Shown: positions 1-4,270, counted from the first letter of the stretch. The stretch: DNA of 4,270 nucleotides from a virus (IMGVR_UViG_2711768074_000007:1-4270); one strand, 5' to 3'. The notes: generated by a model not told the origin, from the sequence alone. A program made the numbers and translations.

Positions 1-132
1 GTTGGTACGGGATGCTATCACGGCGATGCCCTGACGGTTTATCCCTACACCCCGGAGTCCATTATTGTCGAAGGGGATTATTTCCCTGCCCCAGCCATTC
101 ATTTAATTGATAATCTGAGAGTAAACGCATGA
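1..132 (+). CDS. 3' end of upstream late gene (partial; probably a baseplate protein by P2-like gene order). Frame 1 is open from the window edge to TGA at 130..132
   Basis: Frame 1 has no stop from position 1 until TGA at 130-132, which overlaps the tail fibre ATG (ATGA overlap at 129-132), typical of coupled phage late genes. No start codon in window. Product is inferred only from position upstream of the fibre gene. Confidence 0.4.
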   Translation, partial: VGTGCYHGDALTVYPYTPESIIVEGDYFPAPAIHLIDNLRVNA

Positions 133-1694
133 CAGTGAAATACTACGCCATTCTGACTAATCAGGGCGCGGCACGACTGGCTAACGCGACGATGCTCGGC
201 AGTAAGCTGAATCTGACGCAAATGGCCGTTGGTGATGCAAATGGTGTGTTACCAACACCAGACCCTGCACAAACAAAACTGATTAACCAGAAACGCATTG
301 CACCGCTGAATCTTCTGAGTGTTGACCCTAACAATCAGAGCCAGATTATTGCGGAGCAAATCATCCCTGAAAACGAGGGAGGATTCTGGATCCGTGAGAT
401 TGGTCTTTATGATGATGAAGGTGTACTCATTGCGGTGGCAAACTGCCCGGAAACGTACAAACCGCAGTTGCAGGAAGGCAGTGGACGCACCCAGACTATC
501 CGCATGATTCTGGTTGTCACGAACACCGAAGCCATCACGCTGAAAATCGACCCGTCTGTGGTTCTGGCAACCCGCAAATATGTGGATGATAAAATATCAG
601 AGCACGAACAGTCACGACGTCACCCGGACGCCTCGCTGACCGTAAAAGGTTTTACTCAGTTAAGCAGTGCAATTAACAGTGAATCAGAAACACTGGCCGC
701 AACACCGAAAGCGGTTAAGGCTGCATATGACCTGGCTAACGAGAAATATACCGCCCAGAACGCCACCACTACACAAAAAGGGATTGTTCAGCTCAGTAGC
801 GCCACGAACAGCACGTCTGAAACACTGGCAGCGACACCAAAAGCTGTTAAGGCGGTAATGGATGAAACGAACAAGAAAGCACCATTAAACAGCCCGGCAC
901 TGACCGGAACGCCAACAACACCAACAGCGCCACAGGGGACTAATAGTACCCAGATCGCAAGCACGGCTTTCGTTATGGCCGCGATTGCCGCACTTGTAGA
1001 TTCGTCACCTGATGCACTGAACACGCTGAACGAACTGGCTGCGGCGCTGGGCAATGACCCGAATTTTGCGACCACCATGACTAACGCGCTTGCGGGTAAG
1101 CAACCGAAGGATGCCACCCTGACGGCGCTGGCGGAGCTTGCTACATCAGCAGATAAACTCCCATATTTTACAGGGGCAGATCGTGCCGCGTTAACCGCGT
1201 TGACAAGTGTTGGACGTGCCATTCTTGGTAAAACCAGCACTCAGGGAGTTCTTGATTACCTTGGTTTGGGAGAAGGCTCTGCATTACCGGTTGGGGTGCC
1301 TGTTCCGTGGCCTTCAGCCACTCCGCCAACGGGCTGGCTGAAATGTAACGGTGCAGCATTTTCTTCTGAAATGTATCCCAGACTGGCAAGGGCTTATCCC
1401 ACCAATAAATTACCGGATTTACGCGGTGAATTTATCCGTGGCTGGGATGATGGGCGCGGGATTGATGCGGGACGTACCCTGCTTTCAGGGCAGGATGGTA
1501 CAAGTTTTTCTCATTACGGAGGTAATTTCGACATTGGGTCTGGTCATTCAATCAATAACTATGACCAAATTGTTTCTAACCAACCAGGCTTTTCCCGTTT
1601 TTCATTTGCAGGGCCTTCACGAGGCGGTGGGGTTAATTATGTAACCATTCGTCCTCGTAATATTGCGTTTAATTACATCGTAAGGGCAGCATGA
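129..1694 (+). CDS. Tail fibre protein, P2 gpH-like. Constant shaft is codons 1-378 (129..1262); the C-terminal ~143 codons (1263..1691) are variable tip cassette V1, currently expressed
   Basis: 521-aa ORF. N-terminal region (MTVKYYAILTNQGAARLANAT...MAVGDANG...GFWIREIGLYDDEGVLIAVAN) and repeated QLSSA(I/T)NS(E/T)SETLAATPKAVKA motifs match what I recall of P2 H / Mu S type tail fibres. C-terminus contains the LPDLRGEFIRGWDDGRG motif shared by all cassettes in the window. Confidence 0.92.
   Translation: MTVKYYAILTNQGAARLANATMLGSKLNLTQMAVGDANGVLPTPDPAQTKLINQKRIAPLNLLSVDPNNQSQIIAEQIIPENEGGFWIREIGLYDDEGVLIAVANCPETYKPQLQEGSGRTQTIRMILVVTNTEAITLKIDPSVVLATRKYVDDKISEHEQSRRHPDASLTVKGFTQLSSAINSESETLAATPKAVKAAYDLANEKYTAQNATTTQKGIVQLSSATNSTSETLAATPKAVKAVMDETNKKAPLNSPALTGTPTTPTAPQGTNSTQIASTAFVMAAIAALVDSSPDALNTLNELAAALGNDPNFATTMTNALAGKQPKDATLTALAELATSADKLPYFTGADRAALTALTSVGRAILGKTSTQGVLDYLGLGEGSALPVGVPVPWPSATPPTGWLKCNGAAFSSEMYPRLARAYPTNKLPDLRGEFIRGWDDGRGIDAGRTLLSGQDGTSFSHYGGNFDIGSGHSINNYDQIVSNQPGFSRFSFAGPSRGGGVNYVTIRPRNIAFNYIVRAA
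1249..1274 (+). other. Crossover site 1 (Gin/Hin/Cin-type 26-bp site, direct orientation, core TT at 1261-1262) at the constant/variable junction of the tail fibre gene
   Basis: ttcttgattacc-tt-ggtttgggagaa: 12-bp half-sites around a 2-bp core. Inner half ggtttgggagaa is identical to the inner half of site 5 in inverted orientation. Identity with the other repeat copies begins exactly at the core. Falls in the Y-L-G-L-G-E codons. Confidence 0.65.
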
Positions 1695-1722
1695 AAACGT
1701 TGGTTTGGGGGAAGGCTCTGCG
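1261..1722. repeat. Left copy of a ~462-bp inverted repeat (core of site 1 through V1 and site 2)
   Basis: By eye, identical to the reverse complement of 3719..4180; the embedded ORFs 1351..1644(+) and 3796..4089(-) translate to the same 97 aa, and V1 equals V5 at protein level. Confidence 0.8.
1688..1713 (+). other. Crossover site 2 (direct orientation, core TT at 1700-1701); overlaps the V1 stop codon and the start of cassette V2
   Basis: agcatgaaaacg-tt-ggtttgggggaa. Left half carries the TGA stop of the tail fibre gene (gca gca tga); right half encodes G-L-G-E of cassette V2. Confidence 0.65.
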
Positions 1723-2163
1723 TTGCCCGTTGGTGTGCCCGTTCCATGGCCCTCAGCCACGCCGCCAACGGGGTGGCTGAAATGTAACGGCGCAGCATTT
1801 TCTTCTGAAATGTACCCCAATCTGGCAAAGGCCTACCCCACCAATAAATTACCGGATTTACGCGGTGAATTTATCCGTGGCTGGGATGATGGGCGCGGGG
1901 TGGATGCCGGAAGGGGCATCTTAAGCATGCAGGGGTGGTTAACAGGAAGTCATTATCATAATATTCGGTCATGGGATGCGTGGGATAACACGGTGCTGGT
2001 GCCAAATGACAAAGGAGGGGATAGTCTGTTGTCGACAGATAACGCCGTCCGGCAAGGTGCAATTAACGGTAGATTTACCAGTCAATACAGAACTGAATCC
2101 TCAGAGGGGAATGAAACCCGCCCACGCAATATTGCCTTCAATTATATTGTGAGAACCGCATAA
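1705..2163 (+). CDS. Silent alternative tail-fibre tip cassette V2 (no ATG and no ribosome-binding site of its own; would be expressed only after DNA rearrangement fuses it to the constant part)
   Basis: Open frame begins just after an in-frame TAA at 1681-1683; the ORF track starts it at TTG 1705. N-terminal 65 aa are nearly identical to V1 (GEGSALPVGVPVPWPSATPPTGWLKCNGAAFSSEMYP...DLRGEFIRGWDDGRG); C-terminus is ETRPRNIAFNYIVRTA; the middle is divergent. Confidence 0.8.
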   Translation: MGEGSALPVGVPVPWPSATPPTGWLKCNGAAFSSEMYPNLAKAYPTNKLPDLRGEFIRGWDDGRGVDAGRGILSMQGWLTGSHYHNIRSWDAWDNTVLVPNDKGGDSLLSTDNAVRQGAINGRFTSQYRTESSEGNETRPRNIAFNYIVRTA

Positions 2164-2774
2164 TGAATAACGCGATATTAAATGATGACCTTATTGCCGT
2201 ACAGGCAGGAAACATCGTCGTTTATAACTATGATGGTGAGACACGGGAATATATTTCCGAATCAACTGAATATCTTGCTGTGGGTGTCGGTATTCCGGTA
2301 AATTCCTGTTTAGATGCCCCGGGCGCACATAAAGCGGGCTATGCTATCCGCCGTTCGGAGAATTTAAGTTCATGGGAGTATGCGCCAGACCATCGTGGTG
2401 AAACCGTCTATAGCACTGACACGGGAAACACCGAAGAAATCACGGCGCTGGGTGACTACCCGAAAAATACAACCACTATCGCCCCGTTAACACCATACGA
2501 TAAATGGGATGGTGAAAAATGGGTGACAGATACTGAGGCACAACATCGTGCCGCAGTAGAAGCGGCAGAAACCAAGCGTCAGTCACTGGCTGATGCGGCA
2601 ATGGCTTCCATAAGTCTGATTCAGTTGAAGTTGCAGGCCGGGCGGAAGTTGACGCAGGCAGAAACCACCCGGCTTAATGCCGTGCTGGATTATATAGACG
2701 CGCTGAACGCAATGGATATAAACATGGCACCAGATATCAACTTGCCGGAAATACCACTGGCAGCAGCCAGTTGA
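2163..2774 (+). CDS. Tail fibre assembly chaperone (Tfa / P2 gpG / Mu U-like), cognate to cassette V2
   Basis: 203-aa ORF whose ATG overlaps the V2 stop (TAATG at 2161-2165). Position immediately downstream of a fibre tip, and its size, fit tail-fibre assembly proteins; family assignment is from memory, not a search. Confidence 0.7.
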   Translation: MNNAILNDDLIAVQAGNIVVYNYDGETREYISESTEYLAVGVGIPVNSCLDAPGAHKAGYAIRRSENLSSWEYAPDHRGETVYSTDTGNTEEITALGDYPKNTTTIAPLTPYDKWDGEKWVTDTEAQHRAAVEAAETKRQSLADAAMASISLIQLKLQAGRKLTQAETTRLNAVLDYIDALNAMDINMAPDINLPEIPLAAAS

Positions 2775-2780
2775 ATATAA

Positions 2781-3257
2781 CTAAGCCGCCCTTACGATAT
2801 AGTTAAATGCAATATTGCGGGGGCGGGTTTCACTACCACCTGTGTTACCAATACTTCCTCGTGAATGAAGCGTTGGTGATGGAATCAAACTCCCTCCTGT
2901 ATTTGTGGCATCAAGCCCCCTGCCTTGCGTATATGTTTTTTTGAAAATCGTGGCCAACTCCCATTCATCCTTTGTGTCATATCCATCGTTAGCTACAACA
3001 ATATGGCGGTGTTTTTCCAACATCCCGTTTTGAATGCTCAATAAAGCGCGTGCCGCATCAATTCCTCGCCCATCATCCCAGCCACGGATAAATTCACCGC
3101 GTAAATCCGGTAATTTATTGGTGGGGTAGGCCTTTGCCAGATTGGGGTACATTTCAGAAGAAAATGCTGCACCGTTACATTTCAGCCACCCCGTTGGCGG
3201 CGTGGCTGAGGGCCATGGAACGGGCACACCAACGGGCAGCGCAGAGCCTTCCCCCAA
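2781..3257 (-). CDS. Silent alternative tail-fibre tip cassette V3 (inverted orientation)
   Basis: Minus-strand ORF with the same conserved N-module (GEGSALPVGVPVPWPSATPPTGWLKCNGAAFSSEMYPNLAKAYPTNKLPDLRGEFIRGWDDGRG) and C-terminus (ETRPRNIAFNYIVRAA), with a unique middle. Begins at crossover site 3; no ATG. Confidence 0.8.
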   Translation of the reverse strand: MGEGSALPVGVPVPWPSATPPTGWLKCNGAAFSSEMYPNLAKAYPTNKLPDLRGEFIRGWDDGRGIDAARALLSIQNGMLEKHRHIVVANDGYDTKDEWELATIFKKTYTQGRGLDATNTGGSLIPSPTLHSRGSIGNTGGSETRPRNIAFNYIVRAA

Positions 3258-3273
3258 ACCAACGTTTTCATGC
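3248..3273 (-). other. Crossover site 3 (inverted orientation, core AA on the plus strand at 3260-3261)
   Basis: ttcccccaaacc-aa-cgttttcatgct; its reverse complement is identical to site 2. Overlaps the start of V3 and the stop of V4. Confidence 0.65.
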
Positions 3274-3735
3274 TGCCCTTACGATGTAATTAAACGCAAT
3301 GTTATGGGGGCGTGTTTCAGATGCTGTGCGAACTGAGCGAGAGGCGTCGAATGCCCATACAGAAGCACCATATCCTTCAATGATCTCAGTTGGTTGTAAG
3401 CCTACTGATAATATAGAGTCAGTTTGACTAAATGGTCCTGAATTAAGCGCATCTTCAAAAAGCTGAGTACGCCCAAAAGTGCCAACTATATTCTGAATAG
3501 CGTCAGACTGTGCAGACAGTAGGTTGCGCCCATTATCAACGCCCCGTCCGTCATCCCAGCCGCGAATAAATTCGCCCCGTAAATCCGGTAATTTATTGGT
3601 GGGGTAGGCCTTTGCCAGATTGGGGTACATTTCAGAAGAAAATGCTGCGCCGTTACATTTCAGCCACCCCGTTGGCAGCGTGGCTGAGGGCCATGGAACG
3701 GGCACACCAACGGGCAGCGCAGAGCCTTCCCCCAA
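3268..3735 (-). CDS. Silent alternative tail-fibre tip cassette V4 (inverted orientation)
   Basis: Minus-strand ORF with conserved N-module (one substitution, SATLPTGW) and conserved C-terminus (ETRPHNIAFNYIVRAA), with a unique middle that looks AT-richer by eye. Begins at crossover site 4. Confidence 0.8.
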   Translation of the reverse strand: MGEGSALPVGVPVPWPSATLPTGWLKCNGAAFSSEMYPNLAKAYPTNKLPDLRGEFIRGWDDGRGVDNGRNLLSAQSDAIQNIVGTFGRTQLFEDALNSGPFSQTDSILSVGLQPTEIIEGYGASVWAFDASRSVRTASETRPHNIAFNYIVRAA

Positions 3736-3752
3736 ACCAACGTTTTCATGCT
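3727..3752 (-). other. Crossover site 4 (inverted orientation, core AA at 3739-3740)
   Basis: ttcccccaaacc-aa-cgttttcatgct, identical to site 3. Overlaps the start of V4 and the stop of V5. Confidence 0.65.
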
Positions 3753-4174
3753 GCCCTTACGATGTAATTAAACGCAATATTACGAGGACGAATGGTTACA
3801 TAATTAACCCCACCGCCTCGTGAAGGCCCTGCAAATGAAAAACGGGAAAAGCCTGGTTGGTTAGAAACAATTTGGTCATAGTTATTGATTGAATGACCAG
3901 ACCCAATGTCGAAATTACCTCCGTAATGAGAAAAACTTGTACCATCCTGCCCTGAAAGCAGGGTACGTCCCGCATCAATCCCGCGCCCATCATCCCAGCC
4001 ACGGATAAATTCACCGCGTAAATCCGGTAATTTATTGGTGGGATAAGCCCTTGCCAGTCTGGGATACATTTCAGAAGAAAATGCTGCACCGTTACATTTC
4101 AGCCAGCCCGTTGGCGGAGTGGCTGAAGGCCACGGAACAGGCACCCCAACCGGTAATGCAGAGCCTTCTCCCAA
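3746..4174 (-). CDS. Silent tip cassette V5 (inverted orientation); protein identical to the currently expressed V1
   Basis: Translation from the TTG at 4174..4172 gives GEGSALPVGVPVPWPSATPPTGW...GGGVNYVTIRPRNIAFNYIVRAA, identical to residues 382-521 of the 129..1694 product. The ORF track extends the frame upstream to an ATG at 4231, which I treat as a fortuitous extension through site 5. Confidence 0.8.
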   Translation of the reverse strand: MGEGSALPVGVPVPWPSATPPTGWLKCNGAAFSSEMYPRLARAYPTNKLPDLRGEFIRGWDDGRGIDAGRTLLSGQDGTSFSHYGGNFDIGSGHSINNYDQIVSNQPGFSRFSFAGPSRGGGVNYVTIRPRNIAFNYIVRAA

Positions 4175-4191
4175 ACCAACGTTTTCGTCTT
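4166..4191 (-). other. Crossover site 5 (inverted orientation, core AA at 4178-4179); outermost site next to the invertase gene
   Basis: ttctcccaaacc-aa-cgttttcgtctt. Inner half ttctcccaaacc is the exact reverse complement of the inner half of site 1; the outer half differs from sites 3 and 4. Confidence 0.65.
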
Positions 4192-4230
4192 TATCCCTAC
4201 CTATACCAACTATGTATTTTTCACGAAACA

Positions 4231-4237
4231 AAGAGGA
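4231..4237 (+). promoter_or_regulatory. Shine-Dalgarno sequence (aagagga) for the invertase gene
   Basis: Purine-rich aagagga lies 8-9 nt upstream of the ATG at 4246. Confidence 0.5.
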
Positions 4238-4245
4238 TGTTTTTT

Positions 4246-4270
4246 ATGCAAATTGGCTATATTCGTGTGT
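4246..4270 (+). CDS. 5' end (8 codons) of a probable serine DNA invertase (Gin/Cin/Pin/Hin family); partial, runs off the window
   Basis: MQIGYIRV matches the characteristic N-terminus of serine invertases (M-x-IGY-x-RVS, with the catalytic Ser expected one or two codons past the window end). Good ribosome-binding site. Sits immediately beside an array of Gin-type crossover sites in tail fibre genes. Confidence 0.6.

Follow-up and report, generated by a model that had tools for sequence, protein, structure and literature searches.

Why should an invertible tail-fibre locus carry the same fibre tip at both of its ends? The question is raised by a 4,270-bp stretch of DNA (hereafter the window), which is the entire length of one contig, CYGG01000171.1, of the draft E. 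coli assembly GCA_001284325.1. The window carries a P2-like prophage's fibre module. Besides the constant part of the fibre, it contains five tip cassettes with Collar domains, a single assembly gene, crossover sites of 26 bp at five positions and the beginning of a serine invertase gene (Table 1). The five cassette slots hold four different tips.

Table 1. Features of the window, with positions counted from its first nucleotide.
Feature	Position	Strand	Content or basis
Baseplate gene I (P2-type, phage tail protein I), 3′ end	1..132	+	Truncated by contig end; placed by comparison with annotated relatives
Expressed tail-fibre gene, 521 aa	129..1694	+	ORF; constant part 129-1260 in frame with tip V1 (type T1) 1261-1694
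Crossover site s1	1249..1274	+	TTCTTGATTACC TT GGTTTGGGAGAA (12 + 2 + 12)
Left arm of perfect inverted repeat	1261..1722	+	Core TT of s1, whole T1 with stop codon, spacer, s2 and 22 nt of the next head
Crossover site s2	1688..1713	+	AGCATGAAAACG TT GGTTTGGGGGAA
Silent tip cassette V2, type T2, 153 aa	1700..2163	+	Pfam Collar
tfa, tail-fibre assembly (chaperone) gene	2163..2774	+	Pfam Caudo_TAP, E = 1.9e-31
Silent tip cassette V3, type T3, 159 aa	2781..3262	-	ORF and Pfam; tail to tail with tfa
Crossover site s3	3249..3274	-	
Silent tip cassette V4, type T4, 156 aa	3268..3740	-	ORF and Pfam
Right arm of perfect inverted repeat	3718..4179	-	Holds silent cassette V5
Crossover site s4	3727..3752	-	
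Silent tip cassette V5, second T1 copy	3746-4179	-	Inside right repeat arm
Crossover site s5	4166..4191	-	AAGACGAAAACG TT GGTTTGGGAGAA
Fixed spacer (stub), array to invertase gene	4192..4246	+	Match to relatives
Serine DNA invertase, first 8 codons (MQIGYIRV)	4247..4270	+	Truncated by contig end; alignment to relatives

In annotated relatives (L001, L005 and others), gene I overlaps the start of the fibre gene by 4 nt. The fibre protein matches the Pfam families Phage_tail_fib, Phage_fiber_2 (twice) and Collar and is identical to a protein recorded from E. coli (CTZ98732.1 / WP_053904822.1); an exact-protein look-up with it returned no contig besides the window's own. The T2 cassette invariably has tfa directly on its 3′ side. 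This is the only tfa copy in the window's array, and its counterpart in relatives is annotated as a tail fiber assembly protein (WP_001057723.1). The exact V4 protein also adjoins the invertase in two further draft contigs of 859 and 1,390 bp, found by exact-protein look-up. The eight invertase codons and their 5′ leader are the same as in relatives, whose full 199-aa gene matches Pfam Resolvase (1.5e-51) and HTH_7; both domains are seen in the full invertase gene of L005. The last 91 nt of the window (4180-4270), which include the stub, are identical at 91 of 91 positions to the P2-like prophages ECA64 and APEC37 and have 8 mismatches to P1-like plasmids, and a plasmid of the latter kind was rejected as the source of the second T1 copy on these counts. 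A scan of the window for promoters and terminators gave no signal exceeding the shuffled expectation.

The five crossover sites, two forward and three reverse, consist of 12 nt, a central TT and GGTTTGGG(A/G)GAA. They sit inverted at the junctions of constant and variable sequence around a 2-bp core, as sites of the Din family do, and their number exceeds two, as in multiple-inversion systems of the Min type. Judging from its sites and genes, the array appears to be of this known Min/Pin-type kind, in which the invertase would recombine the sites and thereby fuse any of the ~150-aa Collar tips to the constant fibre body. In Min of p15B and P1-like phage-plasmids, the invertase likewise adjoins several short alternative 3′ tips of a fibre gene, with more than two sites in mixed orientation, and the P1-like plasmids examined carry Collar-type cassettes, including T1, T2-tfa and T3, with up to seven sites. 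Min of p15B, in the work of Sandmeier, Iida and Arber from 1990-92, is said to have six mix sites. Unlike the Min plasmids, the window belongs to a P2-like prophage, in whose relatives the baseplate genes V, W, J and I precede the array and tail genes follow it; its stub differs from that of the plasmids, and it holds one cassette twice. The R64-type shufflon (Rci/sfx) also varies the C-terminus of one protein by inverting many segments, independently or several together, but it has a tyrosine recombinase, asymmetric sfx sites and a pilus adhesin as its target. The window's array was rejected as a shufflon of this type, its recombinase being of the serine type (Resolvase/HTH_7) and its sites of the hix/gix/cix type.

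The P2-like ‘shufflon’ of EPEC E2348/69 and Phi2 of EC958 share with the window the phage family, the invertase (WP_001165544/5), the T1, T2-tfa and T3 cassettes and the site family, to which s1-s5 belong together with the published EC958 Phi2 sites (...ATTACCTT GGTTTAGGAGAA; PMC4134206). Inversion and coexisting variants have been demonstrated experimentally in both E2348/69 (Goldberg et al., 2014; PMC4272514) and EC958 (Forde et al., 2014; PMC4134206). Their arrays differ in holding two to three distinct cassettes and no duplicate, whereas the window has T1 in both end slots. The window thus alters little in the biology of phage host-range switching, its switch system being of a known kind.

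The initial annotation had described a perfect inverted repeat of 462 nt. Exact comparison bears out the identity, with no mismatch between 1261..1722 and the reverse complement of 3718..4179, and places the right arm 1 nt away from where it had been put: in the original register (3719..4180), 304 of the 462 positions are mismatched, against 0 of 462 after the shift. Both T1 copies were confirmed to translate into the same 143 aa (GLGEGS...NYIVRAA). A repeat search extends the match at 98% identity to 648 nt (arms 1258-1905 and 3535-4182), and the cassette array is indeed bracketed by long inverted repeats that start from the cores of s1 and s5. The perfect arms lie 1,995 nt apart and have their edges at crossover cores. 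An exact inverted match of 462 nt cannot be put down to chance. Other cassette pairs share 86-98% identity over their first 200 nt and 46-50% in the body, where they are unrelated; the longest exact match among the other junction regions is 101-122 nt.

The edges of the repeat define what has been duplicated. Identity begins at the central TT of s1 (1261) and stops at the first polymorphic head position past s2/s4 (1723/3717), after which the next mismatch is at 1763/3677 and mismatches cluster from 1863. On the outer side, 1260/4180 is already mismatched, and the sequences farther out are unrelated, with 44 of 60 positions differing. Since one edge is a core TT and the other the first variable base past the next site, the repeat represents one exact site-to-site unit present twice. 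The unit is tip T1 with its stop codon and the following site; it occurs once in fusion with the fibre body and once beside the invertase. A strain-private A at 1271, 10 nt inside the core, is present in both copies, as are all 12 head differences from relatives in the first 64 nt and a private mosaic of head and body. None of 5,426 complete E. coli genomes contains this mosaic (best match 95%), and no further occurrence of it was found in IMG/VR, GTDB representatives or JGI metagenomes.

Related arrays rarely look like this. It had been suggested that relatives be compared to see whether the two end cassettes are always identical; in ~28 related arrays from complete records, covering chromosomal prophages and P1-like plasmids, the cassettes (two to seven per array) are mostly all distinct and the ends usually differ. 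The T1 tip type occurs in 541 complete records, in nearly all of them as a single copy. Among the closest arrays, those of ECA64 (T1/T7/T2-tfa/T3′/T4′) and Q5 (T1/T2-tfa/T3′/T28′/T4′) each contain five different cassettes, and the window's set is theirs with a second T1 replacing T7 or T28. About 4 of ~45 arrays have mirror duplicates with unit-exact edges, none of them common to any two genomes: the window (T1), APEC37 (T4), 23CRST001 (T28) and plasmid pMB9880_2 (T1 and T3, two units), the last three being ‘complete’ assemblies. Searches with the arrangements of the last three returned only their own records. One of the duplicate copies in APEC37 contains a homopolymer error, and in its relative MEI1O2-23 that slot is filled by another cassette; the APEC37 array is one cassette longer than those of EC9682, 20AR1039 and CM2010-0578/1, which have four. 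Duplicated tips with differing heads occur in 23CRST024 (9 head mismatches in the first 73 nt), EcE.CRE.COL (15, all in the head), plasmid p266917_2_02 (5) and the IMG/VR contig L038. T1 and T28 are themselves diverged paralogous tips of equal length that co-occur in arrays.

A recent inversion, one of the sources first proposed for the identity, cannot have produced it, because inversions conserve content; in an isomer model of the array, none of the 48 isomers contains a duplicate. As inversions duplicate nothing, the arrangement demands a join of two isomers that differ in the place of T1, the fibre end in one and the invertase end in the other. Whichever join was made, by an assembler or in vivo, the repeat is a by-product rather than a device. 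Our preferred explanation, to which we give about an even chance, is that the assembler made the join and that the contig is chimeric. DNA would have come from a culture with several isomers, two of which the assembler would have joined into one contig, and the true prophage would carry a single T1 and a fifth, different cassette, like its closest relatives. The window spans a short draft contig from end to end, and the locus is known as a mixture of isomers in culture, so the duplicate may be a product of assembly. Unit-exact edges would be expected from one physical cassette seen in two contexts.

Clonal cultures are heterogeneous at this locus, and its assemblies frequently fail. Four variants coexist in a culture of E2348/69, as detected by PCR (PMC4272514), and ~50% of EC958 reads are in the alternative orientation, with an explicit caution against artefactual duplications (PMC4134206). 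Assemblies of E2348/69 differ from one another by an exact inversion of the whole array. Database fibre proteins are found truncated at 375-379 aa, which is the position of s1, and both of the further V4-bearing contigs terminate at a cassette edge. Two ‘complete’ genomes have garbled, frameshifted arrays, and PLSDB lists a 2,021-bp ‘plasmid’ composed of fibre cassettes only. The draft contig L012 contains a 1,505-nt fold-back that turns inside a 29-nt quasi-palindrome within a head; an artefact of this kind was rejected for the window on the distance between its arms and the position of their edges. Duplicated, fused and garbled cassettes are frequent at multi-cassette invertible fibre loci, in drafts and ‘complete’ genomes alike, and should be taken for biology only with read-level support, a caution that bears on host-range prediction and on surveys of invertible loci.

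Several observations count against a join by the assembler. One unbroken contig over all five sites speaks for reads that were fairly homogeneous, and majority-rule assemblers should have broken the contig instead of picking T1 twice, since a T1 present in one copy could not prevail at both anchors. The junctions of T1 with the fibre body and with the stub must both physically exist, because the T1 head is unique 10 nt past the core, and their existence is equally compatible with a real duplicate. The duplicated tips with different heads, in 23CRST024 and others, show that cassettes do become duplicated in vivo in such arrays.

We weighed a real and recent duplicate, produced by homologous exchange between two inversion isomers in one cell, and hold it as a tentative alternative. 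The isomers would coexist on sister chromosomes or replicating phage genomes, isomer A being body/T1/T2-tfa-T3′/T4′/X′/stub and isomer B body/X/T2-tfa-T3′/T4′/T1′/stub, and one crossover in the colinear middle would place T1 at both ends with the loss of X, together with a reciprocal product. This would be a bacterial analogue of the duplication/deficiency that results from crossing-over in an inversion heterozygote. Both isomers are reachable and lie two inversions apart, and a single crossover in the ~2.5-kb colinear block gives the window exactly, with identity from the core; the contig is also unbroken over all five sites, as a homogeneous population predicts. Several arrays show cassette duplication followed by head divergence, a route that T1/T28 paralogues sharing arrays indicate to be a real one in evolution, and the extra cassette of APEC37 is hard to explain by slot-by-slot consensus errors. 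The exchange nevertheless needs two specific isomers in one cell and a sister exchange within 2.5 kb, at a rate that we roughly estimate to be no higher than 1e-8 per generation. Against so low a rate, mirror duplicates still turn up in about 4 of ~45 arrays, yet never in two genomes; this suits an origin linked to assembly better than a state that is inherited, and the chromosomal cases reside in assemblies with consensus errors.

A real duplicate in the window would show cassette duplication in such an array at its youngest stage and would implicate exchange between inversion isomers as the way it arises. The product would be neutral in the lysogen and possibly a first step toward new tips. 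It seems rather unlikely to us that the unit-exact mirror duplicates of the window, APEC37, 23CRST001 and pMB9880_2 are, as a group, genuine recurrent products of in vivo recombination between coexisting isomers. Were they genuine, multiple-inversion arrays would have a built-in route of cassette gain and loss (duplication/deficiency), supplying the material from which new receptor-binding tips such as the T1/T28 paralogues would diverge.

RecA-dependent gene conversion, in which the expressed T1 overwrote another, silent cassette next to the invertase by way of homology in the conserved head and tail on either side, had also been proposed and is improbable. The similarity of heads over 200 nt and the conserved tails would suit it, and the signature of conversion, the same variable part under a different head, is seen in 23CRST024, EcE.CRE.COL and p266917_2_02. 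In the window, however, identity starts at the crossover core itself and the contexts beyond are unrelated. Both copies also carry the private A at 1271 and the twelve head differences, and a conversion tract would need to end within 10 nt of homology.

The likeness to the P1 C segment that had been drawn holds for geometry only. In the P1 C segment (Cin/cix) and the Mu G segment (Gin/gix), a serine invertase also flips the 3′ part of a fibre gene, and the P1 segment is also bracketed by a long inverted repeat, of 636 nt at 98% identity with arms 3,006 nt apart. P1 and Mu, unlike the window, have a pair of sites and a pair of alleles, and every allele comes with a chaperone of its own (U and U′). 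What is repeated in P1 is the proximal ~40% common to two 1.6-kb variable parts with different ends, whereas the window's repeat takes in an entire tip down to its stop codon as well as the crossover site that follows, and both ‘alleles’ are identical. In this the window's repeat departs from a bracket of the P1 type, which encodes a shared proximal portion and is conserved in the element. The Fis-dependent recombinational enhancer of Din-family switches belongs in the 5′ part of the invertase gene, annotated in P1 at 18-89 nt into cin, and would fall past the contig end at 4270. A selected design, whether identical ends that keep one tip available or a P1-like bracket for invertase-independent switching, is very improbable and appears largely refuted by the comparison of arrays: in its favour are a repeat close to that of P1 in length and identity and, in the isomer model, T1 as the expressed tip in 24 of 48 labelled isomers against 12 without the duplicate, but the end duplicate is not conserved, distinct cassettes and unlike ends prevail among related arrays, T1 is single in nearly all of its records, the recurrent duplicates are singletons of different tip types, and the P1 repeat encodes a part common to two different fibres, not a whole tip.

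The inverted repeat, at 462-648 nt, would make a plausible RecA substrate, as had been suggested for inversion independent of the invertase. An inversion between s1 and s5, which lie ~2,917 bp apart between cores, had been expected to leave the fibre unchanged. The fibre protein would indeed stay the same; the flip is silent for the fibre sequence only, because it reverses the sole tfa relative to the fibre gene.

Base-by-base comparison of the two arms, with the whole window read, revealed no mismatches over 462 nt between 1261..1722 and the reverse complement of 3718..4179. The perfect inverted repeat reported in the initial annotation is therefore present, and its left arm was correctly placed; the right arm, given as 3719..4180, was 1 nt out of register, at which 304 of 462 positions differ. 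Both copies of the T1 tip, the expressed V1 and the invertase-proximal V5, encode the same 143 aa, as had been proposed. The window's other cassettes are 86–98% alike over their first 200 nt and have unrelated bodies (46–50%), so the exact match confirms the observation. A repeat search of the window extended the repeat to 648 nt at 98% (1258-1905 / 3535-4182). Beyond the perfect block, differences first occur at 1723/3717 and 1763/3677 and cluster from 1863 on; at the outer edge 1260/4180 is mismatched, and sequences farther out are unrelated.

Perfect identity starts at the central TT of crossover sites s1/s5, spans the T1 cassette, the stop codon, 5 nt of spacer and the site that follows (s2/s4), and ends where the V2 and V4 heads first differ. 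Given these limits, exactly one site-to-site unit is duplicated, one copy being fused to the fibre body and the other adjoining the invertase. Compared with the T1 head of its closest relatives, the head common to both T1 copies has 12 differences, all within its first 64 nt; from position 65 onward both copies match those relatives. Neither 5,426 complete E. coli genomes (95% at best) nor IMG/VR, the GTDB representatives or JGI metagenomes yielded this head/body combination. As both copies carry this strain-private mosaic, found nowhere else, the duplication, physical or not, is younger than the mosaic.

Features of the fibre module in the window
Feature	Position	Remarks
P2 gene I, terminal part	5′ part of window	
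Fibre gene, 521 aa		Pfam Phage_tail_fib, Phage_fiber_2, Collar
Expressed tip V1 (T1)	1261-1694	
Four more Collar-domain cassettes, V2 (T2), V3 (T3), V4 (T4), V5 (T1)	1700-2163, 2781-3262, 3268-3740, 3746-4179	Without own starts
Caudo_TAP assembly gene (tfa)	2163-2774	Single, immediately 3′ of V2
Invertase start		First 8 codons; relatives' gene is a 199-aa Resolvase/HTH_7 serine recombinase
Five 26-bp crossover sites (s1-s5)		12 + TT + GGTTTGGG(A/G)GAA; one at each cassette head
29-nt quasi-palindrome	1313-1341, 1753-1781, 3181-3209, 3659-3687, 4099-4127	One per cassette head

The window is the complete 4,270-bp contig CYGG01000171.1 of the draft E. coli assembly GCA_001284325.1. Its crossover sites (s1 and s2 forward, s3 to s5 reverse) agree with the published sites of prophage Phi2 of EC958 (PMC4134206), and the locus belongs to a known kind of host-range switch, the Min/Pin-type multiple-inversion array. 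In relatives, the module has P2-type baseplate genes V, W, J and I on one side and tail genes on the other. For E2348/69, which carries the same array family, PCR showed that clonal cultures contain four variants side by side (PMC4272514), and between independent assemblies the whole array is exactly inverted. The contig's left end lies 128 nt upstream of the fibre gene and its right end 24 nt inside the invertase gene; such ends suggest that the genome has a further copy of the P2 backbone on either side, for example in a second P2-like prophage with another fibre module. A 161-aa ORF for V5 (3746-4231, reverse strand), which begins at a TTG within the fixed spacer before the invertase and runs through s5, is an ORF-finder extension of the silent cassette; the public annotation calls no gene at 3746-4231.

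A very recent inversion, one source of the identity put forward in the initial annotation, does not account for it. Inversions never alter cassette content, so no isomer carries a duplicate, and none of the 48 isomers in a simple array model with five cassettes had one. The identical flanks are incidental to the joining of two isomers: one would carry T1 at the fibre body and the other T1 at the stub, the fixed spacer. In the array model these isomers are two inversions apart and have a colinear middle of ~2.5 kb in common, and one switch anywhere in that middle gives the window arrangement, with identity from the core exactly. The switch could have been made by the assembler or by homologous crossover in vivo, and the flank identity may be absent from the cell, with no physical duplicate there.

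That the assembler made the join is, in our judgement, the likeliest of the explanations, though about evenly poised between true and false. The source is a short draft contig, and in cultures the array is a mixture of isomers (PMC4272514, PMC4134206); Forde et al. explicitly caution about artefactual duplications (PMC4134206). Drafts usually break at crossover sites, with many fibre proteins of 375-379 aa being 'partial', and two further contigs (859 and 1,390 bp) terminate at a cassette edge. One draft contig contains a 1,505-nt fold-back that turns in the 29-nt quasi-palindrome within a head, the arrays of two 'complete' genomes are annotated as series of frameshifted fragments, and a PLSDB 'plasmid' of 2,021 bp comprises fibre cassettes only. 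Unit-exact mirror duplications also occur in APEC37 (T4), 23CRST001 (T28) and plasmid pMB9880_2 (T1+T3; two units, perfect over 933 nt), each a singleton in databases. In APEC37 a homopolymer differs in one copy (C5 to C3), and in the related MEI1O2-23 this slot is occupied by T7.

Homologous exchange between isomers in vivo is a tentative second possibility. That the contig passes through all five sites points to homogeneous reads; T1, if present once, could not be the majority neighbour of each anchor, and both T1 junctions must exist physically in DNA. Tips duplicated with unlike heads, in 23CRST024, EcE.CRE.COL, p266917_2_02 and locus L038, mean that duplication by homologous recombination does happen in these arrays. 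For the exchange in vivo, a rough, inferential estimate gives a low rate. Gene conversion from the expressed T1 copy is improbable and fits poorly, since one end of its tract would have to lie in the 10 nt that separate the core from private base 1271.

Cassettes were typed in ~28 arrays of chromosomal prophages and P1-like plasmids, all from complete records, and in ~60 IMG/VR loci, giving 39 tip types. In most arrays the 2-7 cassettes differ from one another and the two ends are unlike; unrelated flanking cassettes at homologous loci are the outcome that the initial annotation had named as refuting its reading, and identical flanks are not the rule. The T1 body was found at 570 places in 541 complete records, i.e. 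nearly always single. The closest arrays are ECA64 (T1, T7, T2-tfa, T3′, T4′) and Q5 (T1, T2-tfa, T3′, T28′, T4′; primes mark reverse orientation), and the window has their set, except that a second T1 replaces T7 or T28. Selection to keep one tip always available, also raised initially, is very improbable as the design of this array, because related arrays mostly have different ends and T1 is nearly always single. The likeness to the P1 C segment extends to long inverted-repeat geometry only: the P1 repeat (636 nt, 98%) is the shared proximal ~40% of two 1.6-kb variable parts with different ends, each with its own chaperone.

Were the duplicate real, an s1 x s5 flip (about 2,917 bp from core to core) would not alter the fibre protein, as anticipated, but would reverse tfa and the order of silent cassettes. 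The fibre would carry T1 in half of the labelled isomers, against a quarter with a single T1 (array model), and the 462-648-nt repeat is predicted to be a good RecA substrate. All oppositely oriented heads would be lesser substrates, as they match exactly over as much as 122 nt.

The duplicated tips in 23CRST024 (L006 5265-5340 vs 8303-8230), EcE.CRE.COL (L112 7806/8245) and p266917_2_02 (L090 5859/6782) have identical variable parts, with all mismatches (9, 15 and 5, respectively) in the head. This pattern is what homologous recombination between heads leaves behind. In 23CRST024 the T7 copy near the invertase begins like T4, a type that is itself missing. In pMB9880_2 (NZ_CP103764.1, a P1-like phage-plasmid), a 1,140-nt inverted repeat at 98% (L113 5779-6918 / 8594-9733) comprises two whole units (T1+T3), which stand in mirror image at either end of an array of seven cassettes, and is perfect from the core to 7 nt beyond the third core. 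The arrays of the 'complete' genomes PC6 (L108 4129-7800) and 14EC047 (L110 4501-8102) are frameshifted or incomplete fragments between intact flanking genes; these and the cassette-only PLSDB record NZ_CP142924.1 (2,021 bp) are probably artefacts, of consensus or contig building, that a mixture of isomers produced.

The expressed fibre of E. coli SCU-101 (NZ_CP048920.1 and NZ_CP051849.1; L003 3761-4617) has an in-frame T3-T2 fusion, in which the T3 tip's first ~131 aa and the complete T2 cassette meet at a site-like GLGEGS junction (variable part 284 aa); it resembles the outcome of a deletion or fusion involving two cassettes. T28 has the length of T1 (143 aa), and their variable parts are clearly related but diverged and coexist in arrays (L091, L099, L112). 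On sequence comparison the two look like old paralogues, which would fit new tips arising through cassette duplication.

The sole assembly gene, tfa, always lies directly 3′ of T2 and tail to tail with another cassette (window; L001-L008, L092-L103), and T1, T3, T4, T7 and other tips have no chaperone of their own. Since tfa is tied to T2 and is antisense to the fibre gene in about half of isomers, either it serves T2 only or other tips fold without it. In 23CRST001 (L092 5163-7112), tfa within the invertible array is disrupted by an IS4-family element (ISVsa5-like transposase). The quasi-palindrome of each head, TTCAGCCAC.CCGCCAACGGG.TGGCTGA, encodes SATPPTGWL, and the turn of the near-perfect 1,505-nt fold-back (L012 6405-6437) falls exactly at it, with the arms 31 nt apart.
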